From assembly GCA_965223265.1 (NCBI GenBank), contig OZ244999.1, positions 7,264,001 to 7,328,000 on the forward strand: a stretch of DNA of 64,000 nucleotides. The letters are read 5' to 3'. Below, piece after piece: positions 35,903-47,044 of this stretch. Numbering within the stretch: the first letter of the stretch is position 1; the number at the start of each line of letters is the position of its first letter. Under the pieces are notes generated by a model that ran no database searches, was not told where the DNA came from, and was given only the letters and a program-made list of their open reading frames with translations. A program made the position numbers and the translations under genes. The stretch comes from Planctomycetota bacterium. GTDB taxonomy: Bacteria; Planctomycetota; UBA8108; SXIK01.

Positions 35903-36310
35903 CGTGCGGTCAAGTGCGGCCCGGTCTTCACGACGAAACTAACAGACGGAGTCTTCCGGAGGAAGAGATTCCGGGGCCGCGGAGAGGTCTGATCGCGGTG
36001 GTTCATCCGAGCAGAAGGATCGGTTCCTGTTAGTATCATGTCCGCCTGCGCCGGCCACGAGGCGTTAACGCACAACGCACGCCAACCGCGGTTTTCCGCA
36101 GCGATTCGACGCCGTGCAGAGGCGACCACAACGATGTGAGGGCTACACAACTGAGGCACGCCAACATGGCTTGTGGGCGCTGGCGCTGCCCGACTCCCCA
36201 CGCCGCGGCCCACATTCGTTGACTACGTTCCTACAAGTGCGATCGTGGTTGCACTTGGCGGATTTCGGTTTCACCCGCACAGTTTTTCCCTGAGCTTCCG
36301 AGACGAAAAC

Positions 36311-38692
36311 GTGCAGCTGACAGAACTCGCGGGCGCGGACGACGCGTCCGGATCGACCCTGCCGCCGAAAACAAGACTCGACGCTGCCATACAAGCAACG
36401 CGGGGTTTCCTACGCTCGATCTTTCGGCGCGGTGACGATTATCAACCCGAGGACGTGCTTTGGAGCCGCAAGACCGTCCGCGCGCGCGACGAAGACCGAG
36501 ACGACGAGACGCGGCTGGGCTACTGGATTGGCGAACTCGAGGCGGACACAACTCTCGAGTCGGACTATATCCTCTTTCTCTACTTTCTCGATAAAGAGGC
36601 CTACCGCGACAAGATTCGCAAGCTCGCCAACTTCATTCGAACGCAGCAACTTGAAGACGGTTCGTGGAACATCTTCCACAACGGCCCGCCGGAGATCAGC
36701 GCGTCGGTCAAGGCGTACTTCGCGCTGAAACTCGCGGGCTACGCCGTCGATGAACCGTTCATGAAGAAGGCCCGTGACGCAATTCTTCGCATGGGTGGCG
36801 CAGAAAACGTCAACAACTACACGAAAATCTATCTTTCGTTTCTCAATCAGTTCAACTGGAAAGAGATCCCTGCAATCCCACCGGAGATCATCCTTCTGCC
36901 GCGCTTCTTCTACTTCAACGTCTACGAGATTTCGTATTGGTCACGCGCGATTTTGATCCCGCTGTCGATCCTCTACGCGAAGAAGCCCAATCACAAGCAG
37001 ACCCCGGAAGTCACCATTGAAGAGATCTTCGCCGGCTCGAACGGCAACAACGGTCGCACCGACGAGGCGAGCGATCGTGTTGCCGCTGATCATATCGGCG
37101 CGCCGGCAGCCGACGCCGAGGCGTCAATGGCCGTGGCGAGGGATGCGGACAGCTCTCAGGCGGAGCAGGGACACCCGGCGATCGGATCGAACGGCGCGAG
37201 TTTCAACGACGCCATCGATTCGAGTTCTGCGACCAACGGCGGCCTGAAGATCCCGAAGGACCCCAATCTTCTTTCGTGGCGTAACTTTTTCGTTCTCGTC
37301 GACAGGATCCTGCGCCTGATCGAAAAGACACCGCTCAAACCCCTGCGCGGCATCGCGCTCAAGAAGGCAGAAGCGTGGGTCATATCGCGCTCAGAGGACT
37401 CCGACGGACTCGGCGCGATCTTTCCCTCGATGGTGAACAGCGTCATGGCCATGCGCTGCCTCGGTCATGACGAGAGTCATCCATGCTTCGCAACCAATCT
37501 GAAGAAGCTTCAGGAGCTGGAAATTGAAGACGGTGACTGCATTCGGCTCCAGCCTTGCCTGTCGCCGGTATGGGACACGGGGCTCGTCATCAACGCGCTT
37601 GTGGAAGCGGGCGCAGCGCCCGACGAGCCGGAGATCATCGAGGGCGCGCGCTGGCTGCTCACCAAAGAAGTTCGCAAGCCTGGCGATTGGAATCAGCGCG
37701 TTCGCGGGGTTGAGACCAGCGGTTGGCCTTTTCAATTCCGCAACGAGTTTTACCCTGACGTCGATGACACCGCCGCCGTCCTGCTGGCTCTCGAACGATG
37801 CGACCACACGAAGGTTCCCGGCCTCGAAGACTCCATCACGCGGGGGCTGAACTGGACGTTGAATATGCAGTGCAGCAACGGCGGCTGGGCCGCTTTCGAC
37901 GTGGACATCGACCATGCGCTCCTCACGCACGTGCCGTACGCCGATCACAACGCCATGCTCGATCCCGCTTGCGCCGATATCACCGGAAGAGTTCTCGAGA
38001 TGCTCGGCCGCTTTCCAGACTTGAGATCCAACCCCGTATACCGAGACGCCATCGCGCGCGGCGTCAAGTATCTCGTCGACTCCCAGCTTGCCGACGGCTC
38101 ATGGTTTGGCCGCTGGGGCGTCAACTATATCTACGGCACGTGGCAGGCGGTGAAGGGGCTGATGGCGGTCGGAGAAAACCCTCAAGCGCCGCACGTCCGC
38201 AAAGCTGTCGCCTGGCTAGTCGAACACCAAAACAGTGACGGCGGGTGGGGCGAAACTTGCGACTCCTACCGTGATGTCAAACTCAGCGGCCGTGGCACGA
38301 GCACGGTGTCGCAGACGTCCTGGGCAGTGATGGCCCTGGTGGCAACAGGCAGCGCTGACTCGCCCGCAGTCGAGCAAGGCGTTGATTTTCTCCTCCGTCG
38401 TCAGAAAAGCGATGGAACTTGGGACGAGGACGAATTCACGGGGACCGGATTCCCAGACGTGTTCTATCTGCGCTACCACCTCTACCGCGTGACGTTTCCG
38501 CTCTTCGCTTTGGGATACTACCGCAACGTCAAGTATTCCCAGAAGCCCATCGCAGCTCCAGCGAAGACGATCCCGCTCGCCAGAGCCAAGCCGAGGGGCT
38601 TGGATCTTCTTTCCCTACGCTCACTGCGGGGGAACCTCTTCCGCGGCGGCTCGAAACCTGAGACGGACGGCCAGTCAGTCACTAGCAGCTGA
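36311..38692 (+). CDS. shc: Squalene-hopene cyclase
   Basis: GYWIGELEAD, QW repeats (QLEDGSW, QCSNGGW, QLADGSW, QNSDGGWGE, QKSDGTW), QPCLSPVWDT, catalytic YPDVDDTA, GTGFP..FYLRYHLY. Confidence 0.96.
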   Translation: MQLTELAGADDASGSTLPPKTRLDAAIQATRGFLRSIFRRGDDYQPEDVLWSRKTVRARDEDRDDETRLGYWIGELEADTTLESDYILFLYFLDKEAYRDKIRKLANFIRTQQLEDGSWNIFHNGPPEISASVKAYFALKLAGYAVDEPFMKKARDAILRMGGAENVNNYTKIYLSFLNQFNWKEIPAIPPEIILLPRFFYFNVYEISYWSRAILIPLSILYAKKPNHKQTPEVTIEEIFAGSNGNNGRTDEASDRVAADHIGAPAADAEASMAVARDADSSQAEQGHPAIGSNGASFNDAIDSSSATNGGLKIPKDPNLLSWRNFFVLVDRILRLIEKTPLKPLRGIALKKAEAWVISRSEDSDGLGAIFPSMVNSVMAMRCLGHDESHPCFATNLKKLQELEIEDGDCIRLQPCLSPVWDTGLVINALVEAGAAPDEPEIIEGARWLLTKEVRKPGDWNQRVRGVETSGWPFQFRNEFYPDVDDTAAVLLALERCDHTKVPGLEDSITRGLNWTLNMQCSNGGWAAFDVDIDHALLTHVPYADHNAMLDPACADITGRVLEMLGRFPDLRSNPVYRDAIARGVKYLVDSQLADGSWFGRWGVNYIYGTWQAVKGLMAVGENPQAPHVRKAVAWLVEHQNSDGGWGETCDSYRDVKLSGRGTSTVSQTSWAVMALVATGSADSPAVEQGVDFLLRRQKSDGTWDEDEFTGTGFPDVFYLRYHLYRVTFPLFALGYYRNVKYSQKPIAAPAKTIPLARAKPRGLDLLSLRSLRGNLFRGGSKPETDGQSVTSS

Positions 38693-38695
38693 ACC

Positions 38696-39490
38696 ATGAC
38701 CCGGGAGCGCGCCAAGCAGAAGGTCGACTGCGCGATCTTCGTGGCGCTGCGCGAAGAGATGCGACCGCTGACGCCGCTGCTAAAAAAGCGTCAGGCCTGC
38801 CGTGCAAGCGACGGCAGGCGTTTCACGTGCGGCACCGTGGGACCACACACGGTCTCCCTCTGTCGCACTGGAATCGGCAGCGAACTGGCAGAAGCGCGCG
38901 CGCTCAGTCTCATTGAGACCGTCACGCCCAGGCGCGTCTTGGCCCTCGGATTCGCCGGTGGACTCCAGCCCCACCTACGTCCCGGACACCTGGTGCTCGC
39001 TGAGAAGGTATCGAATGCGGCAGGATTTGACAGCGACGTCCCAAGGGCGCCGCACGGCTGGGGGCCACCGCGGTACGTTCGTGAGCGACCCATAGCCATC
39101 CCAACCATGACCGTCGTGTGGGGCCATCTCATCAGCGTCGATCGAGTGCTCCGCGGACAGAAGGAGAAACGCGCGGCCGGCGCCGCATTGGCCGCCGACG
39201 CCGTCGACATGGAGTCGGCCGCGATCGCCGCGGTCGCCGCAGCCAACTCTATCCCGACGCTTTGCGCGCGCGCAATTCTCGATCCGTGCGACTTGGAACT
39301 GCCGTTCGACTTTGGTCAAATCGTCACCCCGGATGGCCAGACACGGCCGTTCAAAGCTCTCTTGACACTTGGCACTCGCCCCAGCACCTGGCCGTCGCTC
39401 GCGGCGTTGAGATCCGCCGCAGGTCAAGCGGCAACCGCCTTGGCGCAGGCACTTCCCGCGCTGCTGGACCTCCTGGAGCCGGAGTCGTGA
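38696..39490 (+). CDS. hpnG: Hopanoid-associated nucleoside phosphorylase (HpnG-like, PNP/UDP family)
   Basis: VALREE, TGIG, GFAGGL, AVDMESAAIA, RAILD; starts 3 bp after the shc stop. Confidence 0.72.
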   Translation: MTRERAKQKVDCAIFVALREEMRPLTPLLKKRQACRASDGRRFTCGTVGPHTVSLCRTGIGSELAEARALSLIETVTPRRVLALGFAGGLQPHLRPGHLVLAEKVSNAAGFDSDVPRAPHGWGPPRYVRERPIAIPTMTVVWGHLISVDRVLRGQKEKRAAGAALAADAVDMESAAIAAVAAANSIPTLCARAILDPCDLELPFDFGQIVTPDGQTRPFKALLTLGTRPSTWPSLAALRSAAGQAATALAQALPALLDLLEPES

Positions 39491-39590
39491 GCGACCGTAG
39501 GTGTTAGCAACCAATCAATGCCGCGGCGTCGGCATCGGCGCCGAACCAGGCGCATGTCGGCCCGCGAGCGGGTCTAGCTCCCCTGCAGTA

Positions 39591-40133
39591 ATGAACCGAC
39601 AACCGCAGACACTCGAGCCCGTCACGAGACTCAGACGTCGCGCGACCCTCCACGCCGTTCGCGCACCCGAGCTCGATCGCTATCTCGACCGAAGAAACAT
39701 CGACCTCGTCATCACCGACGAAGTCCAGGCTCTCCAGGTGAGGTTTCGCCGTGCACTCGAGGTCTTCGAGCACCGCGTCGAGTCGGCGCTGGCAACAACA
39801 GCTCGTGCTCTGCGTCACCGGCTCCTACTGATTCTTGTTGCCGCCCTCGTCACGGCCATCAGCGCCGCCGGAGTGGAATGGTCCTCTCGGCTCCAGCCGG
39901 TTTTGCTTGGCGTCAGCGCCTTGACGATCGCGCTCCTCGCCGGCGACATGTGGTTCATCCACCAAGATCAACGCCAGCTACGGCACGCAGCTCGTGTGTT
40001 GGAGCAGTTCGATCCAAGTTCATGTGAAACCGCCGCAAAGGCCTTAGCCCTAGCCGACGAGATCCTGGGCCTCGCGCGCGCGCTCGGCGCAGTCGAACCA
40101 CGCACGTCGGACAGCAGCGATGCCGACGCTTAG
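39591..40133 (+). CDS. Hypothetical membrane protein (two TM segments)
   Basis: Two hydrophobic segments; same strand as shc-hpnG; start uncertain. Confidence 0.55.
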   Translation: MNRQPQTLEPVTRLRRRATLHAVRAPELDRYLDRRNIDLVITDEVQALQVRFRRALEVFEHRVESALATTARALRHRLLLILVAALVTAISAAGVEWSSRLQPVLLGVSALTIALLAGDMWFIHQDQRQLRHAARVLEQFDPSSCETAAKALALADEILGLARALGAVEPRTSDSSDADA

Positions 40134-40296
40134 CAGCCCGTTGAAAAAGTCATTCGGCCGAGAAACCGGCCTCTTCACGCCCAGCTCGACCGCGTCAATA
40201 CTCGAAAATCTCGGAGATTACCTGCGTTTGCCGCGGCCGATCTGGACGCGAAGAGACCAGTTTTCGGCTCGAAGCACTTTTTCAACAGGCTGTTAG
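40131..40296. mobile_element. MITE-like element, copy A
   Basis: Terminal inverted repeats TAGCAGCCCGTTGAAAAAGT / ACTTTTTCAACAGGCTGTTA; near-identical inverted copy at 61375-61541. Confidence 0.85.
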
Positions 40297-40306
40297 CCTC
40301 GAGTTT

Positions 40307-40484
40307 GGCCTGTCTGAAAACATGCTTCGAGATGAAGACCGGCCGCTTCGCGTTCAAATCAGCCGCAGCGAACGGAGGAAATCTCCAGCCTCTTCCATGA
40401 GATGTACTGGCGGCTCGCCGCGGCTGATCTGGGCGTAAAGAGGCCAGTTTCTCAGCCGATTGACTCGTTCAACAGGCGGTTTAG
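40307..40484. mobile_element. MITE-like element, diverged copy B (inverted relative to copy A)
   Basis: Shares GCTTCGCGT, AATCTCC, GCTCGCCGCGG, TCTGGGCGT, AGAGGCCAGTTTCTC and TTCAAC colinearly with copy C. Confidence 0.75.
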
Positions 40485-40546
40485 GTTCGATTCACTCGAG
40501 CCGGGCAGGCCGCACCGCTCGCGACGCGGCCTGCTCCAACGCCGAG

Positions 40547-41398
40547 TTATTTGCCGGGCAGGTCGTTGTAGAGCCGACTCGCCTGCGCCAACCACTCGAC
40601 ATGATCGGCCGAGTGATCTGGCGGACTCGGGAGCGCCATGAGTTGATCAAGCGCGGCGCGGGCACCGTCGAAGTCGCCGATCTCAAGCAAGGCGCCGGCG
40701 TAGGCGAGGTGATTGCCACCGAACTGGGGACATTCCTCTGTCGCCTGGCGTAGGTACGCCATTCCTTCTTCGGCCGTACCAATGGAAAGCAGCGGGTACT
40801 CGCGCGTTGCGACGAGCAACTCGCCGAGTTCGCGCGCCGGCCCGCAGTGATCCAGGGTGGAATCGAGGTAGTACGCCATGCTGAGGTGCTCTTTAGTTCG
40901 TAGCGCGAGCTTGTCCGGCTTCATTCTCCGGATCTCGAAGAGACGCTTCAGGTTGAGTCCGTAATAGTAGTAGGACTCGGCGTGAACGCTCGACTTCGCT
41001 TTCGACACCGCCTCCTTGCCCCACCAGACCCCCTGCTTCGCGTAAGCTTCCTGCTCGCCGCGCGTCGAATGGTTCGCTAGCCAAGCGCAAGCTCGAGCGC
41101 CGCGCCACAGCGCGCCGTAGTTGTTGACGCTGGAGATCGAGTGAAGGCTCGTCTCGCGCGAGAGCTTGACGCCGGCCGGAGTTCGTGGCTCCGCGTACTG
41201 CTGGTCGATCTCCTTCATGCGCTTGGCGAGCGCCGATTCGGTCAATGCCGCGGGCTCGTAGGGGAGGCTGGGATTGACAATCGATTCCAGCTCGACGATC
41301 GGAGGCGTGTCGCTACAGCTGACGGCGACAGCCATCAGGGCGCCCAACAGACCAATCCCCACACAGCTCCCAAGCTCACTTCGCATCAAACGCATCAT
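40547..41398 (-). CDS. TPR-like helical lipoprotein (TatT/BstC-like)
   Basis: Lipobox-like AVSC after a hydrophobic stretch; LWRGARACAWL, ESYYYYGLNL, D.TLDHCGPARELG, YLRQA...P.FGGNHLAYA.AL helical repeats. Confidence 0.65.
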   Translation of the reverse strand: MMRLMRSELGSCVGIGLLGALMAVAVSCSDTPPIVELESIVNPSLPYEPAALTESALAKRMKEIDQQYAEPRTPAGVKLSRETSLHSISSVNNYGALWRGARACAWLANHSTRGEQEAYAKQGVWWGKEAVSKAKSSVHAESYYYYGLNLKRLFEIRRMKPDKLALRTKEHLSMAYYLDSTLDHCGPARELGELLVATREYPLLSIGTAEEGMAYLRQATEECPQFGGNHLAYAGALLEIGDFDGARAALDQLMALPSPPDHSADHVEWLAQASRLYNDLPGK

Positions 41399-42530
41399 AC
41401 TTTCCCTCCACACTTCTGAGCCATTTCTGGCGTAACTCCACAAATCCTCGCACACCCATCGTCTTCACGAGTGGCTTCGCCTTCGGGCGCTTCGACAGGG
41501 AAAGCAGCGCTTCTTTGAGTCGCCGCCTCTGCTCAGAGGTCAATCCTCTGCCAGCCGTTTCACCCTGCAGCTGAGCCGCTCGCAAGCCACCTCGCGCGTG
41601 GCGTGCCAACGATTCGCTCCTCGTCGTCTCTTCAGACTGACCTTGATCCTTCTTCTCTTCGATGGCGCTGCATGACTCGGGTCTGAGTCGGCCCTGCAGC
41701 GCCGTCTTCGCTCCGCCACCGGTGCCAGGACCGGTGCCCTGACGCTGATCCTTCCTGAGAGGACGTGCCGGCAGCGAAAAGAAGACGAAAATTGATTCCG
41801 GATAGTATTCCGACTCGAGAAGTTTCTCCACTTTTTTCCCCGGTGAAACCTCCCCAAGCGCGGCGAACTCGCGACCCGTCAGCACCACTGCGTCGACCCT
41901 ACCGCGATGGAGGCGACGCAGCGCGCGCGACACCCTCAGCGTCGGCCGGATCTGCCACGCATCGATCGCCGCCTCTTTTCCCAGCACGACACGTCGCAAA
42001 AACTCGGGCTCGTAAAGTGGACCACCGGCTACCTTCTTGCCGGCAAGGTCTTTGAGGCGCCGAAACGAACCCGCGCGAACGACGGCGACGACGCGATCCC
42101 CTGGCTCCGACTCGAGCTGCGCGTCGAGACCGAACTGACGTCGGTAGCGGAGATAGAATCCAAGGCTGACGAGTCCAAACGCCGGTTTTTTCTCCTCGAT
42201 CACTTTGGCCGCGCTTTCAGGCACGTTGTGGTAGGAACCCTCGAGCGATTCGATACCGCTCTGGGCTGCAAGGTCAGCCGAAAAACGCCGCATGAATCCC
42301 TCAGCTTCGGCGGTCGATCCGGGATATCCCGGTTGCACGATGATCCACCTCACAGCGTCCGCGGCGTTGGCGTGCGAACTGACAAGCGCGACGGTGATCG
42401 CCAGCGCCAGCACCACGGCTCGTAGCCGCGTTCTGCTTCGGTGGCCCAGGCGCTGGCCAAAGCTGGCGCGCGGGCAGAAGGGACCACCTTGCCTCGAACC
42501 CTCGTCAAAGTACCTGATCAAGCAGCTCAT
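41376..42530 (-). CDS. Periplasmic substrate-binding protein (PhnD-like fold, BstB-like)
   Basis: Signal peptide ending ANA-A; QPGYPGSTAEA, LKDLAGKKVA, LHRGRVDAVVL, LKEALLSL..MGVRGF. Overlaps the next gene; alternative GTG start at 42554. Confidence 0.68.
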   Translation of the reverse strand: MSCLIRYFDEGSRQGGPFCPRASFGQRLGHRSRTRLRAVVLALAITVALVSSHANAADAVRWIIVQPGYPGSTAEAEGFMRRFSADLAAQSGIESLEGSYHNVPESAAKVIEEKKPAFGLVSLGFYLRYRRQFGLDAQLESEPGDRVVAVVRAGSFRRLKDLAGKKVAGGPLYEPEFLRRVVLGKEAAIDAWQIRPTLRVSRALRRLHRGRVDAVVLTGREFAALGEVSPGKKVEKLLESEYYPESIFVFFSLPARPLRKDQRQGTGPGTGGGAKTALQGRLRPESCSAIEEKKDQGQSEETTRSESLARHARGGLRAAQLQGETAGRGLTSEQRRRLKEALLSLSKRPKAKPLVKTMGVRGFVELRQKWLRSVEGKYDAFDAK

Positions 42531-42550
42531 GACGTAACCCCTTGATGATC

Positions 42551-45469
42551 TCACATGGCTGATGCGCTCGACTGCCGTTTCTCGGCGCCTCGCGCTGCGT
42601 TACTCGAAACCCAACCGAGCCGCGACAGCACCTCGACGACCGCGGGAAGCAGAAAGACCGTGGCGCACAAAATCGTCAAGCATCCACACATCATCAACCA
42701 TCCCAGGCTTGCAACTCCACGATGATGAGCCAAGGTCAAGGAACCGAACCCAGCCATCGTGGTGATGAACGAGAGACAGACCGCGGAGGCGGTCGTACGG
42801 CTCATCTCGGCGGTCGAGCCGCATTCGCGATGGCGATGCATCATGTGAACACCACCGTCGACGCCGCAGCCGATCAGAATCGGCAGTGCGAAAAAGTTCG
42901 CAAGATTGAACTCAAGCGACAATGCCGGCATAAGCTGCAAGAGCCAAAAGAGACCGAACCCAACGGGCAGGAGGGCGAGGACCGTGCGCACCACGCTGCG
43001 GAAATCAACAAGGAGAAAACAAGCAACGATTAGCAGCGAGTACACCGCCGCGGTGAGGAACCCCTCACGCATGAGACGGGCCGATTCGAAGACCTGCAGT
43101 GGCGTTCCAGTGACTTCAGGGCTGACCTCGGCAGTAGCGCGGACAAACTCGGCCATGTTGTCGCGCTGCCAGATGTCCTTGCGAGGGTAGGCGTAGAGGA
43201 GGAGACGACCGTGCTCGGAGACGAACCTCTCTCGCACCAGTTCAGGCAAGGTCGCAATCTCGAGAGCCGGCGGACGCAAAAGGCGCGAAAGTTTCCGGCG
43301 CAGCGCCAACATTTCCGCGAACCACGTCTGCTGAAACGACTCGAGGCGATCTTTCACGGCCTGTGCATCTGCGCCGGCGTCTGCGACGACATCAAGCACC
43401 GTTTCGATGGACTCGATCCAATCGCTTAGCTGCGCGATCAGTGTGTGCCGCGCCGGCTCCATCGCTCGCAAGTCGCCATCCGTTGACATCGATCGCGTCG
43501 CTGCTGCGGAGGCACCCGACCGCAGCGCGTTCGGCGTCGGAGACGAGTTCTGCTCGTCGACTCCCGCGGTCCGCGCCAGTTGGCTTACCGCCGTGTCAAG
43601 GCGATCGATGAGTGTTTCAAGTGCCGAAGTGAGCGCGGTGACGTCAACGTCAGCCGCACCTGGTCTCTCCTCAAGCGACTCAACCACCGCCGCCGCCGGA
43701 TCGAGCATAGTTCGTCGCAGCGTCTGATCCGGAGCGATGAAGTCGCGCACGCTCTCCGTCTGTCCGACGATGCCGGCATCCCGGAGCGCCTGCAGCTTGT
43801 TGCGAATCGCATCGAGCTCGGTGAGAGATTGGGCAATGTAGACGGCCTGCCACGTGGAGGCGTCCGACTCCTCGGCAAGTAGCCGCTCGTACTTCACCGA
43901 CTCGAGCTCCTGCGATTGAAGCTCCAAGAGGTTGAAGTTGTACTCGACGCCGCGAAAACGTGTGGCACCGAAGAGGGTAGGGATCAAGAGCAGGAGAATC
44001 ACCGCATAGCGATAGCGTGGCACAAGCTCTAGCCCGGGCATGCGCAGAGGCGTCGGAGGGTGCAGCGTTCGCCGCCGCGCCAGCGCCCGGTCGGAGACGA
44101 CGATCAGCGCCGGCAGCAACGTCAGCGTGGTGAAGAGGCACACCAGCACACCAGCGCCAGCAACGAAACCCAGTTCTCTGAGTCCCTTAAAGTGGACGAG
44201 CATCGCGGTGCCAAACGCCCCTGCCGTCGTCACGCCACCGGTAAAGATGCCGACGCCTGTCGTCTCGAGCGTGTTCGTAATGGCTCGACCGATCTCCGAC
44301 GAGCTGCGCAGTTCGTCTTGATACCGAGCAACCAAGTGGATGCCGAAATCGATTCCGAGCCCTACCAACATGGCGGCAAAGACGATCGATAGGAGTGTGA
44401 GGTAGCCAATCGTCAGCGCAACGACACCGAACGTGATCGCAATGGACGTGACCAAAACGACCGCTGCGAGCAGCGGACGCCGAAGGCGACGGAATGTGAT
44501 AGCGAAAAGGAGCACAACCGTGAGCAGAGCGAGAACCGTGGCGCGCCGCATATCTCGATCGGTCGTCGTCATCTCGTCGGCCTGCAGCACCGGACGCCCG
44601 GTCAGTCCCACCTCTGCACCCGGAAACTGCGCGCGAACACGATCGAGTGCAGCGCGAATTTCTCGGAGGGGCTCCTGGATCACCGCCAAAGTCTCGTAGT
44701 TCTTCTCAGGCATGATCAGCACAAAAGCCAATTCGCCGTTGGTGCTGAACAGATAACCGTTGTCGCGCGGATGCTGGGTCTGTGTCAGCTCTTCCCCGAG
44801 TCTTGCGCTCAAGCTCTTACTCGACACCCCGGCTACAGCAGCTTGCAACGAGTCAAGATAAGCACCCAGGATCCTTCCGCCCCATTCGAGTCGGGCGTCT
44901 CCTGGCACCGAATCGCTACCGCCATCACTCATCAACTCCGAAGCAAGGAATTCTGTGAACCCAGCGAGCGTGGTGAGATGCGCGAAACGCTCGAGGAGGG
45001 GAGCGTCGCGCGTCAGCGTCTCGGCGAGCCCAGCCAGGTGTTGATTGTCGTAGCGCGCTAGCAGAAGGAGCGAGTCGCCGAACGCGTCGGAAGCGACCCG
45101 ATGGTAAACGCGATGGACGTGCTGCGGCAGTTGGCTGAGCTCTGCCGAGATGGCGTCGGCGATGCGAGCCGCACGCGCTGGATCGTCCGCGACTTGGATG
45201 ACGACGTAGAGAAACTCCTGATCGCCGAACTCGTCGACGAAATTCATGTAGCGGCGGTGGTAGTCCAAGTCGGTCGAAACCAGATCGTTCTGATCGGTTC
45301 GAATCTCGAGCTTGAGGATTGCTGCCGTGACTGCACCAGCTGCCACCATCGCGTAGCCAACGATCACGAGCCACGGGTGACGGGCGACCCACCGACCGAC
45401 ACCGCGAAGAGCGCGGGGCGCCCATCTCTGCCGCCGTGCTGCGTCCGGGGTTGTCGGCGGTTGCACCAT
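42551..45469 (-). CDS. hpnN: RND/MMPL-family lipid transporter (HpnN/BstA-like)
   Basis: Two TM bundles with large periplasmic loops; GLTGRPVLQADE, GLGIDFGIHLVARYQDE, LRELGFVAGAG, LPILIGCGVDGGVH, FGSLTLAHHRGVASLG; near shc. Confidence 0.8.
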   Translation of the reverse strand: MVQPPTTPDAARRQRWAPRALRGVGRWVARHPWLVIVGYAMVAAGAVTAAILKLEIRTDQNDLVSTDLDYHRRYMNFVDEFGDQEFLYVVIQVADDPARAARIADAISAELSQLPQHVHRVYHRVASDAFGDSLLLLARYDNQHLAGLAETLTRDAPLLERFAHLTTLAGFTEFLASELMSDGGSDSVPGDARLEWGGRILGAYLDSLQAAVAGVSSKSLSARLGEELTQTQHPRDNGYLFSTNGELAFVLIMPEKNYETLAVIQEPLREIRAALDRVRAQFPGAEVGLTGRPVLQADEMTTTDRDMRRATVLALLTVVLLFAITFRRLRRPLLAAVVLVTSIAITFGVVALTIGYLTLLSIVFAAMLVGLGIDFGIHLVARYQDELRSSSEIGRAITNTLETTGVGIFTGGVTTAGAFGTAMLVHFKGLRELGFVAGAGVLVCLFTTLTLLPALIVVSDRALARRRTLHPPTPLRMPGLELVPRYRYAVILLLLIPTLFGATRFRGVEYNFNLLELQSQELESVKYERLLAEESDASTWQAVYIAQSLTELDAIRNKLQALRDAGIVGQTESVRDFIAPDQTLRRTMLDPAAAVVESLEERPGAADVDVTALTSALETLIDRLDTAVSQLARTAGVDEQNSSPTPNALRSGASAAATRSMSTDGDLRAMEPARHTLIAQLSDWIESIETVLDVVADAGADAQAVKDRLESFQQTWFAEMLALRRKLSRLLRPPALEIATLPELVRERFVSEHGRLLLYAYPRKDIWQRDNMAEFVRATAEVSPEVTGTPLQVFESARLMREGFLTAAVYSLLIVACFLLVDFRSVVRTVLALLPVGFGLFWLLQLMPALSLEFNLANFFALPILIGCGVDGGVHMMHRHRECGSTAEMSRTTASAVCLSFITTMAGFGSLTLAHHRGVASLGWLMMCGCLTILCATVFLLPAVVEVLSRLGWVSSNAARGAEKRQSSASAM

Positions 45470-45652
45470 CTCGATGAGCAGCCTCGTGCGGTTGTCGGAA
45501 TCAGAAAACGGCGTCGAGACGTAGCTGCGCACCGCTCCAGGACAGGCGAGGAACTACGTGGCGCTCGCGCTGCCGGTCACGTATGATACTCCCTTTCGCC
45601 TCTCGTTCAATCGACGCACCACGTGCCAGTCGAAGCGTAGAAAACTCCAGGC

Positions 45653-45708: not shown

Positions 45709-45820
45709 TTCGTCGGGGATCGCTCGGAGCGACGCTGCCCAGCGCCGCTCCTTGGCTTTGACCCTACTGGCAGCCCCAATCCCGACGCGCGTTGTCGAGA
45801 CTCAAAACCGGAAGAAACTC

Positions 45821-47044
45821 ATGTCGTTCTCCACCATCGAAACTGCCGTGAACGCCATCAAGAATGGCGACCTTGTCATCGTCGTCGACGCGGAAGATCG
45901 AGAGAACGAAGGCGACTTCATCTGCGCTGCAGAGAAGATCAATGCCGAAAAAGTCAATTTCATGGTTAAGAAGGGAGGCGGTCTACTGTGCGTGACGATG
46001 CTTCCCGATCGCGCGACGGAGCTGGACCTACCCCTCGCGCCCATCACACCGGGACGCTACGCACCGCTGAACCGCACCGCCTTCACCACCACCGTTGACA
46101 AAATCACCTGCAAGACGGGTGTCTCCGCGGCAGAGCGCGCCGAGACGATCGCAGCTATCGTCGACGAGAAAACGCGCCCCGAGGATCTAGCGCGACCAGG
46201 GCACGTGCATCCGATCATCGCACAGGAGGGAGGCGTCCTGCGGCGCGCCGGACACACCGAAGCGTCTGTCGATCTGGCCAAGCTGGCGGACTGTCGCCCG
46301 GTCGGTGTCTTGATCGAGATCCTCGACGACGACGGCAGGATGGCGCGACGCGACCGTCTGCTTGAAGTCGCGGCCGAGCATGATACCCCTATCGTTACGA
46401 TCGCTGATCTTATCCGCTACCGACGTCGGCACGAGAAACTCGTTCACCGCATCGCGAGCGCAGATCTGCCGACGCGCTTCGGCAAGTTTCGCGTCTATGG
46501 GTTCGACGTCGCCCACGACACACAGCAGCCAATCGCTCTGGTCATGGGAGACGTCACGAAAGCCAAAGCGCCGCTGGTGCGCATGCATTCTTCTTGCTTT
46601 ACGGGCGATCTGCTTTCGAGCTTGCGCTGCGAGTGCGGCGATCAACTGCACATCGCGCTCGAGATGATCGCAGCCGAAGGCGCCGGAGTCGTCGTCTATC
46701 TCCCCCAGGAAGGTCGCGGCATCGGCCTGATCGAAAAGATCAAGGCTTACGAGCTGCAGGACGGTGGTCTCGACACCGTCGAGGCGAACGAAGCCCTGGG
46801 CTACCGCGCGGATATGCGCGACTATGGGGTCGGCATCCAGATCCTTAAAGATCTCGGACTCAGCGAGATCCGGCTGCTGACGAACAACCGGAAGAAGACG
46901 GACTCGTTCATCTACTACGGCTATGACTTGACCGTGGTCCGGCAAGAGCCTCTTCTAGCACCACCGCGCCCGGAGAGGCGTAAGTACCTCCAGACCAAAC
47001 GTGACAAACTGGGTCACGATCTGCCAGCCGACGAAGAGGAGTGA
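45821..47044 (+). CDS. ribBA: Bifunctional DHBP synthase / GTP cyclohydrolase II
   Basis: DAEDRENEGD, TGVSAAERA, RPGHVHP, RAGHTEA; RMHSSCFTGD..RCECGDQL, QEGRGIGL, LLTNN. Confidence 0.96.
   Translation: MSFSTIETAVNAIKNGDLVIVVDAEDRENEGDFICAAEKINAEKVNFMVKKGGGLLCVTMLPDRATELDLPLAPITPGRYAPLNRTAFTTTVDKITCKTGVSAAERAETIAAIVDEKTRPEDLARPGHVHPIIAQEGGVLRRAGHTEASVDLAKLADCRPVGVLIEILDDDGRMARRDRLLEVAAEHDTPIVTIADLIRYRRRHEKLVHRIASADLPTRFGKFRVYGFDVAHDTQQPIALVMGDVTKAKAPLVRMHSSCFTGDLLSSLRCECGDQLHIALEMIAAEGAGVVVYLPQEGRGIGLIEKIKAYELQDGGLDTVEANEALGYRADMRDYGVGIQILKDLGLSEIRLLTNNRKKTDSFIYYGYDLTVVRQEPLLAPPRPERRKYLQTKRDKLGHDLPADEEE

Follow-up and report, generated by a model that had tools for sequence, protein, structure and literature searches.

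A predicted Bst-type lipid transporter with an HpnN-like pump adjoins hopanoid, not sterol, synthesis genes in Planctomycetota

The window analyzed in this work, a stretch of 64,000 nucleotides from a Planctomycetota bacterium (assembly GCA_965223265.1, contig OZ244999.1), contains at positions 36173-45532 a locus in which a squalene-hopene cyclase gene (shc) and an hpnG-like gene converge on three closely packed genes of the opposite strand, for a pump of the resistance-nodulation-division (RND)/MMPL type, a periplasmic binding protein and a tetratricopeptide repeat (TPR) lipoprotein. Judged from its sequence, the locus holds what appears to be a three-part lipid transporter of the Bst type whose pump is HpnN-like and which is joined to hopanoid, not to sterol, synthesis. 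At least nine planctomycete families share this arrangement. The genes all lay where the initial annotation had placed them, and the features are as follows (ORF, open reading frame; pLDDT, per-residue confidence of the predicted model).

36173-38692, + strand: shc, squalene-hopene cyclase; maximal ORF, with in-frame GTG codons at 36173 and 36311
38696-39490, + strand: hpnG-like nucleosidase/phosphorylase gene, starting 4 nt past shc; PF01048 (PNP_UDP_1), 102.9 bits
39501-40133, + strand: ORF of 210 aa belonging to no known family, between hpnG and the BstC-like gene
40547-41398, - strand: BstC-like all-helical TPR lipoprotein, 283 aa, with ATG start and AVSC as putative lipobox
41376-42530, - strand: BstB-like periplasmic binding protein of predicted PhnD fold, 384 aa, with signal peptide; PF12974
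41550-41756, - strand: low-complexity insert, residues 259-327 of the BstB-like protein; pLDDT <50
42551-45469, - strand: HpnN-like pump of the RND/MMPL type, inner membrane; 972 aa counted from the ATG, with the reading frame staying open to 45532
45752-47044, + strand: ribBA, a riboflavin gene, divergent and upstream of the pump

The BstB-like and BstC-like genes are joined by a 23-nt overlap, and a gap of 20 nt separates the stop codon of the pump from the start of the BstB-like gene. Since a consensus scan of the locus for promoters and terminators returned sites no commoner than in shuffled sequence, the operon structure is defined here by packing and synteny.

BstA, BstB and BstC have been described as the system by which Methylococcus capsulatus transports sterols (eLife 2024; PDB 7T1M and 7T1S; PMC10942540). 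Like the locus in the window, that system comprises a pump, a PhnD-fold periplasmic protein and a TPR lipoprotein in the same gene order, and it adjoins a triterpenoid cyclase locus. The identity between the proteins of the window and those of BstABC is only about 20-26%. The neighbor in the window is shc, whereas the neighbors of BstABC are osc and sdmAB, and no co-location with sterol genes (osc, smo, sdmA/B), as known for BstABC in a sterol producer, was found here. Thus, the Bst-type architecture proposed in the initial annotation stood for the gene order and for the homology of the two small proteins to BstB and BstC, but not for the pump, which was nearer to HpnN than to BstA, and all three proteins scored under the Bst equivalog cut-offs.

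The top family of the pump was HpnN, with 507.1 bits on TIGR03480 (cut-off 751.85) and 343.6 bits on the second HpnN model, NF052374 (cut-off 1100), so that both HpnN cut-offs were missed; the score on the BstA model NF045600 was lower than either (277.6 bits, cut-off 1400), and that on the MMPL family was 137 bits. The best solved relative was HpnN of Burkholderia (PDB 5khn, E 2.4e-54). A crude hydropathy scan displayed at least 10 hydrophobic segments, with one N-terminal segment, two clusters and two long loops, a predicted layout that is the one expected of an RND pump. The gene is the only one of its kind in the genome, with no close paralogue, and lies about 4 kb from shc. HpnN of Rhodopseudomonas palustris and of Burkholderia multivorans (5KHN/5KHS) is likewise linked to shc and hpn genes; unlike the window, canonical HpnN loci are devoid of BstB- and BstC-like neighbors. 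All six planctomycete pumps that were scored preferred the HpnN over the BstA hidden Markov model (HMM), which by these scores places the pump on the HpnN side and not on the BstA side. Among the best 120 of 522 pump relatives none was named BstA; the comparison with BstA was accordingly made by HMM scores, and the pump tree was anchored on canonical planctomycete HpnN instead.

The two small proteins resembled BstB and BstC far beyond chance. The N-terminus of the BstB-like protein is hydrophobic and ends in ANA followed by AD, as in a signal peptide, and PF12974 (Phosphonate-bd) matched the protein with 37.7 bits, over the gathering cut-off of 27. Its sole NCBIfam match was BstB (NF045601, 84.8 bits, under the equivalog cut-off of 350) and its best PDB sequence match was BstB as well (7t1m, E 6e-18). 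The predicted model (pLDDT 77) displayed a bilobed PhnD-type fold closest to 7T1M, which was the top Foldseek match (E 1.5e-17, TM 0.81 on target) and was followed by ArrX, PtxB and PhnD. Profile comparison by hhalign of the clade of the window with the true BstB clade gave a probability of 99.94% (E 2.3e-37, 253 aligned columns, 26% identity).

For the BstC-like protein the sole NCBIfam match was BstC (NF045602, 44.2 bits, equivalog cut-off 350) and the best PDB sequence match was BstC 7t1s (E 1.4e-7); its predicted model (pLDDT 86) was an all-helical, TPR-like fold with 7t1s as the top Foldseek match (E 2.8e-6, TM 0.75). No match to PF16811 was obtained for this protein at E <= 0.01. A cysteine, Cys28, is invariant among its relatives after a hydrophobic stretch (AVSC); this motif is read as a lipobox, and the lipoprotein is probably anchored in the outer membrane, facing the periplasm. 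The next fold matches, weaker than BstC, were two TPAT/TatT-type structures, the TPR domain of PTPIP51 (7CC7) and TatT (E 3e-5 to 9e-4; Tp0956, 3U64, and 8G52/8G53 for the TatT/TPAT lipoproteins). Relatives of TatT are described as lipid binders (PMC11713862). TatT works with a TRAP importer, in contrast with the BstC-like protein of the window, which sits with an RND pump. The likeness to BstB and BstC put forward in the initial annotation was therefore confirmed, 7t1m and 7t1s being the top matches by sequence and by predicted fold. By sequence, profile and predicted fold, both proteins are classed as real, distant homologues of BstB and BstC. Strict membership of the Bst and HpnN families does not apply to the three proteins of the window, whose scores lie far under the equivalog cut-offs.

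The family to which the BstB-like protein belongs is considerably larger than the characterized one. In the Bst paper, the BstB cluster consists of 16 sequences and the BstC cluster of 13, and the abstract states that similar transporters are widespread; no link of Bst-type transporters to hopanoid cyclases was found in the available part of it (PMC10942540). A full HMMER search for BstB relatives with profile A1 (17 sequences), in which representatives were taken at 50% identity, returned 615 representatives at E <= 0.001, 391 at 1e-10 and 82 at 1e-30. A FastTree tree was then clustered that contained 143 of the best 150 relatives (those of at least 200 aa), and one member from each of ten clusters was scanned. 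Only P0219 exceeded the BstB cut-off (407.8 bits), the other nine scoring 79-163 bits; true BstB is thus one clade of five members (5/143) within a much larger family. One relative, P0255 (871 aa), carries the BstB-like domain at residues 609-817 and is a possible fusion. The nearest protein clusters named in an atlas, which we take as leads only, were BstB-like in Pseudomonadota and Myxococcota.

The cavity of BstB is described as lined by 19 residues in domain A, plus E118, Y120 and N192, and the binding site is, by the account of the paper itself, not experimentally verified (PMC10942540). These positions were mapped on the protein of the window by alignment only, with P0219 standing in for BstB (its numbering being that of the paper +2, as inferred from matching residues). 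In this alignment mapping, which is no measured cavity, 14 of the 19 positions were identical or hydrophobic (P67, F79, M80, F83, L120, S122, L123, F248, L345, L354, V355, M358, V360, and F363), three were polar (Q66, E245, and S246) and two fell in a 4-residue deletion of the window protein. Of the additional residues, E118 corresponded to D145 (D/E throughout A1), Y120 to V147 (mostly F in A1) and N192 to T218. Apart from lacking this 4-residue stretch, the protein differs from BstB in its insert of about 70 residues (259-327), which is predicted to be disordered, is charged and Gly-rich, and separates the last strand of the fold from the C-terminal helices; relatives have inserts of differing length here (alignment A1), and the true BstB clade has none (hhalign).

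The cyclase was of the hopene type. Its product scored 690.4 bits on TIGR01507 (over the cut-off of 431.1) and contained the Pfam domains SQHop_cyclase_N and SQHop_cyclase_C; the DVDDTA motif, from which the initial annotation had recognized a hopene cyclase, was located at residues 529-534 of the 839-aa ORF, with DVDD (the DxDD motif) at 529-532. The source genome, whose nearest relatives are planctomycete metagenome-assembled genomes, is a single contig of 9.18 Mb with a completeness of 91.65%, and the genome-wide negative results given here apply to that assembly. In it, no oxidosqualene cyclase (OSC) was found over the cut-off, the best match being shc itself (214 bits vs. 851), and the squalene epoxidase family gave no match. 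The initial annotation had set a hopanoid against a sterol association, and no sterol pathway was found in this genome. Elsewhere it encodes hpnH (543 bits, cut-off 225) and two SQS_PSY genes. A sterol transporter like BstABC has in its favor that BstB and BstC are the only characterized relatives of the two small proteins; with no OSC or squalene epoxidase match, a hopene-type cyclase as neighbor and all three proteins far below the Bst cut-offs, we regard this function as extremely unlikely, though foreign sterols might be taken up.

The same genome carries another cyclase-like gene, divergent and coding for 687 aa (L003:1459-3522, - strand; G000:C1:3744165-3746228), which scored 113 bits on SQHop_cyclase_C and 105 bits on TIGR01787, under the cut-off. 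It may belong to an "SHC-like" clade of unknown function that is mentioned for the PVC group (PMC12414744). Cyclases of the planctomycete families f13 and f26 (genus g162) were considered as OSC candidates and ruled out (226-248 bits vs. 851).

Linkage to the cyclase was surveyed twice. The first survey comprised seven loci from planctomycete metagenome-assembled genomes (MAGs), collected via conserved peptides and searched by tblastn with the proteins of the window. The BstC-like gene was present in 7/7, the pump in 6/7 (the seventh contig begins at the BstB-like gene) and shc in 5/7 (one contig ends too early, and another has 2.2 kb more without shc). The second covered 401 sampled Planctomycetota genomes, that of the window counted, with BstB-like genes taken at E <= 1e-5; two of the seven MAG loci are contigs of its genomes G200 and G232. 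A BstB-like gene was held by 48 of the 401 genomes, a gene of the squalene cyclase family over cut-off by 145, and an HpnN-like pump by 106 at E <= 1e-80, of which 5 exceeded the HpnN cut-off. The cyclase appeared in 46 of the 48 genomes with a BstB-like gene vs. 99 of the 353 others, and the HpnN-like pump in 47 of the 48 (the exception was G198). Among the matches listed, the cyclase lay within 6 kb of the BstB-like gene in at least 19/48 genomes from at least 9 of 17 families, far away on the same contig in 3/48 and on another contig in 24/48; this adjacency may be undercounted, with nine cyclase matches lying outside those listed.

Up to 20 kb of sequence surrounding each of the 48 BstB-like genes was extracted, and the ORFs therein were HMM-scored for six query families. 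The BstC-like gene came after the BstB-like gene in 44/48 loci, three of the four misses being contig ends and the fourth, L039, a real one. The pump lay directly upstream on the same strand in 29/48. These numbers bear on the possibility that the small proteins do not work with the pump, for instance as a solute-binding protein and a TPR scaffold merely sharing its operon. The pair stands without a pump nearby in families f26, f30, and f95, and complex prediction for the BstB-like and BstC-like proteins returned no interaction (score 0.00, which gives no verdict and weighs neither way). The place of the pump directly upstream in 29/48 loci, its presence in 47/48 genomes, the same three-part order in 10 of 80 loci outside the phylum (see below) and the precedent of BstABC, as described in PMC10942540, nevertheless make separate roles very improbable.

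Four gene orders joined the module to the cyclase. In the order of the window (families f1-f3; eight loci besides the window), ribBA is followed by pump, BstB-like and BstC-like genes converging on hpnG and shc. A second order (f26, f30, and f95; seven loci) places the BstB-like gene, the BstC-like gene and shc on one strand with no pump nearby; the gap before shc is about 100-200 nt (about 700 nt in the f95 locus). In a third (f102, one locus) shc, hpnG, pump, BstB-like and BstC-like genes follow each other on a single strand, and in a fourth (f79 and f91) shc is divergent from the pump and the pair. This argues for selection, and not mere inheritance of one gene order, since the linkage has been kept through such rearrangements. 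It also answered the doubt, left by the initial annotation, whether linkage to shc is conserved across Planctomycetota: it is, in at least 19/48 genomes and at least nine families. The hpnG gene adjoins shc in 8/8 loci with the order of the window, in L053 and in 5/7 MAG loci. Given this conserved place directly after shc, an HpnG role is plausible; the score of the window protein on TIGR03468 was 116.2 bits, under the cut-off of 187.1, so that the gene, hpnG-like in the initial annotation, falls in the PNP_UDP_1 family and is a candidate HpnG only.

Two loci deviated in other ways. L039 (G040, 93% complete) holds the pump and the BstB-like gene, with no BstC-like gene after them and no cyclase match in the genome. 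In L032 (G232:C108) about 3 kb lie between the BstB-like gene and the pump, which are adjacent elsewhere, and an insertion is possible.

A quick IQ-TREE tree of 37 pumps was built with a midpoint root, 5 of the 15 pumps of family f57 being kept; one long-branch join was flagged, and letter make-up was uneven in many rows. In this tree 18 of the 20 carrier-paired pumps fell in one 20-row group (SH-aLRT 93), which also held one unpaired pump and pump P0099 of Syntrophotalea carbinolica, which shares 37% identity with the pump of the window. Two pumps of f13 stood apart from this group. The canonical planctomycete HpnN pumps (L167 and L168) grouped with pumps of a non-planctomycete clade on the opposite side of the midpoint root. 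At L167 (G184) and L168 (G053) the pump exceeds the HpnN cut-off and lies directly beside shc and hpnG, without BstB- or BstC-like genes; the phylum thus holds two different hopanoid-linked transport layouts.

Relatives outside the phylum were found in a metagenome scan with clade A4 (21 non-planctomycete members), which returned 344 relatives, of which 80 loci were kept, 17 of them of at least 9 kb. The pair of BstB-like and BstC-like genes was present in 56/80; 23 others have less than 800 nt beyond the BstB-like gene, and one has room and no pair. A pump of the HpnN/BstA type was located upstream on the same strand in 10/80, and three of these pumps scored about equally on the HpnN and BstA models (393-408 bits each). 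The loci L100, L102, L125, and L130 have the pair flanked by an HAE3-type MMPL pump, barrels resembling TonB-dependent receptors and an fn3 protein, which suggests that the carriers serve another purpose there, perhaps one related to uptake. Since the cyclase is rare in these loci, a tie to hopanoids does not extend to the whole family: the module is a general design for lipid handling, and the hopanoid tie is a feature of planctomycete lineages.

From these data we propose, as the reading that we hold probable though far from assured, that the three genes of the window encode a hopanoid export relay from the inner to the outer membrane. Hopanoids would be supplied by the neighboring shc and hpnG, with hpnH elsewhere in the genome; the HpnN-like RND pump, driven by the proton gradient, would extract them from the inner membrane; the secreted BstB-like protein would shuttle them through the periplasm in its hydrophobic cavity, and the BstC-like lipoprotein would accept them at the outer membrane. 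The proposal mirrors the model put forward for BstABC (PMC10942540 and PMC11713862). It draws on gene order, homology, predicted folds, the signal peptide, the lipobox, the lack of a sterol pathway and the linkage and co-occurrence with the cyclase, from which we infer cargo, direction of transport, hand-over between the proteins and the outer-membrane site of the lipoprotein. As far as computation goes, the relay suggested in the initial annotation is supported, its cargo being the inferred part.

Several results weigh against this relay. No cyclase match was obtained in two genomes with a BstB-like gene, G040 and G295 (93 and 84% complete, respectively). A fifth arrangement, in family f57 (15 genomes of about 4 Mb) and in two genomes of f13, has the pump followed by the pair without a cyclase nearby, and in G168, G008, and G176 module and cyclase are separated by 0.38 to 5.7 Mb of the same contig. 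Related genomes are non-independent, so that the counts overstate the support. Only 5 of 15 BstC cavity residues were kept, in an unreliable pairwise alignment of 22% identity. Outside the phylum, the cyclase occurred in 1/80 loci, and other loci flank the pair with the divergent HAE3-type MMPL pump and TonB-dependent receptors. Moreover, 99 of the 145 cyclase-bearing genomes lacked a BstB-like gene at E <= 1e-5, and none of 12 HpnN-like pump loci from nine families, taken for comparison from genomes without a BstB-like gene, had BstB- or BstC-like neighbors, even at E 0.01, so that hopanoid production does not generally go with these carriers.

The main rival keeps the same machinery and the outward direction and assigns to it other or broader envelope lipids, such as squalene, carotenoids or other planctomycete lipids, the linkage to shc then reflecting shared regulation of envelope lipids. 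The large size of the BstB/BstC family, the near absence of the cyclase beside the pair in other phyla, the modules of f57 and f13 standing away from shc and the pump and BstB-like gene of G040 all fit such a cargo. The retention of shc linkage through at least four gene orders and nine families, the cyclase in nearly all genomes with a BstB-like gene and the fact that the closest characterized relative of the pump moves hopanoids speak for hopanoids instead, and we consider another cargo rather unlikely, though a serious competitor.

The machinery might also work inward or in membrane maintenance and, in the way of the phospholipid system Mla, retrieve or scavenge lipids present in the outer membrane or the medium. 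The BstB fold is that of uptake binding proteins, the relatives in other phyla adjoin TonB-dependent receptors, and TatT, which is related to BstC in fold, is part of a system for uptake. Yet the partner here is an RND/MMPL pump instead of an importer of the ABC or TRAP type, the planctomycete modules (whose ORFs were scored for the six query families only) showed no TonB-dependent receptor, and HpnN is described as needed for placing hopanoids in the outer membrane (Doughty 2011, cited in PMC10942540), all of which leaves an inward system improbable.

To our knowledge, the route of hopanoids through the periplasm has yet to be explained, HpnN in the inner membrane being the one component characterized so far. 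The BstB-like and BstC-like proteins are likely to fill this gap as the carriers bringing hopanoids to the outer membrane, and the locus supplies concrete candidates for a phylum other than the one in which carriers had been put forward.

Those earlier candidates, proposed in 2025 and confined to Pseudomonadota, are HpnM and HpnS (MlaC- and MlaA-like) and HpnT (DUF2147) (bioRxiv 2025; PMC12324291). They have the same proposed role as the carriers of the window, a periplasmic shuttle and an outer-membrane lipoprotein acting with HpnN, and microsynteny with shc and hpnN gave rise to the two proposals alike; the folds of HpnM, HpnS and HpnT are unrelated to those of the window carriers, and the genome gave no match to the MlaC, MlaA and DUF2147 families. 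In the main text of PMC12324291, Planctomycetota are mentioned solely for the distribution of SHC, and the terms Phosphonate-bd, phosphonate, tetratricopeptide/TPR, PhnD, and Bst are absent; the supplementary list of families near shc may include them. A literature search on the Bst, HpnN/hopanoid and TatT themes retrieved no paper describing Bst-like carriers with a hopanoid cyclase.

The two "sterol-binding" folds described in 2024 are thus part of a far larger family (see the 615 representatives above), and hopanoid and sterol trafficking are linked through homologous parts. This evolutionary link carries no direction, the trees being unrooted or, for the pump only, midpoint-rooted. We tentatively raise the possibility that a PhnD-fold carrier with a TPR lipoprotein is a widespread and old periplasmic shuttle for polycyclic triterpenoids and other bulky lipids, whose main use in planctomycetes would be for hopanoids, with an HpnN-type pump, and of which BstABC of methanotrophs would be a small derived offshoot; if so, bacterial sterol trafficking would have been built from a hopanoid system. 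In annotation, the trio of pump, carrier and lipoprotein beside shc can serve as a genomic marker for such systems.

Minor features of the locus and genome were also recorded. Another lipoprotein of the TatT/TPR type, sharing 34% identity with the BstC-like protein, is encoded at L159:8422-9261 (- strand; G000:C1:3568422-3569261) and stands alone; the ORF beside it was considered as a second BstB and ruled out (hhalign probability 0.14%). The nearest clusters named in the atlas for the BstC-like protein, again leads only, were TPR/TatT-like in Planctomycetota, Acidobacteriota, and Myxococcota. In the window and in 8/8 loci of the same order, the pump has ribBA divergently upstream of it; in 5/7 MAG loci ribBA is near the pump. 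The 210-aa ORF had no Pfam or NCBIfam match; it carries two hydrophobic stretches, read as putative membrane helices, and was found by tblastn at the same place, with 30-37% identity, in L031-L037, L015, L017, and L018.

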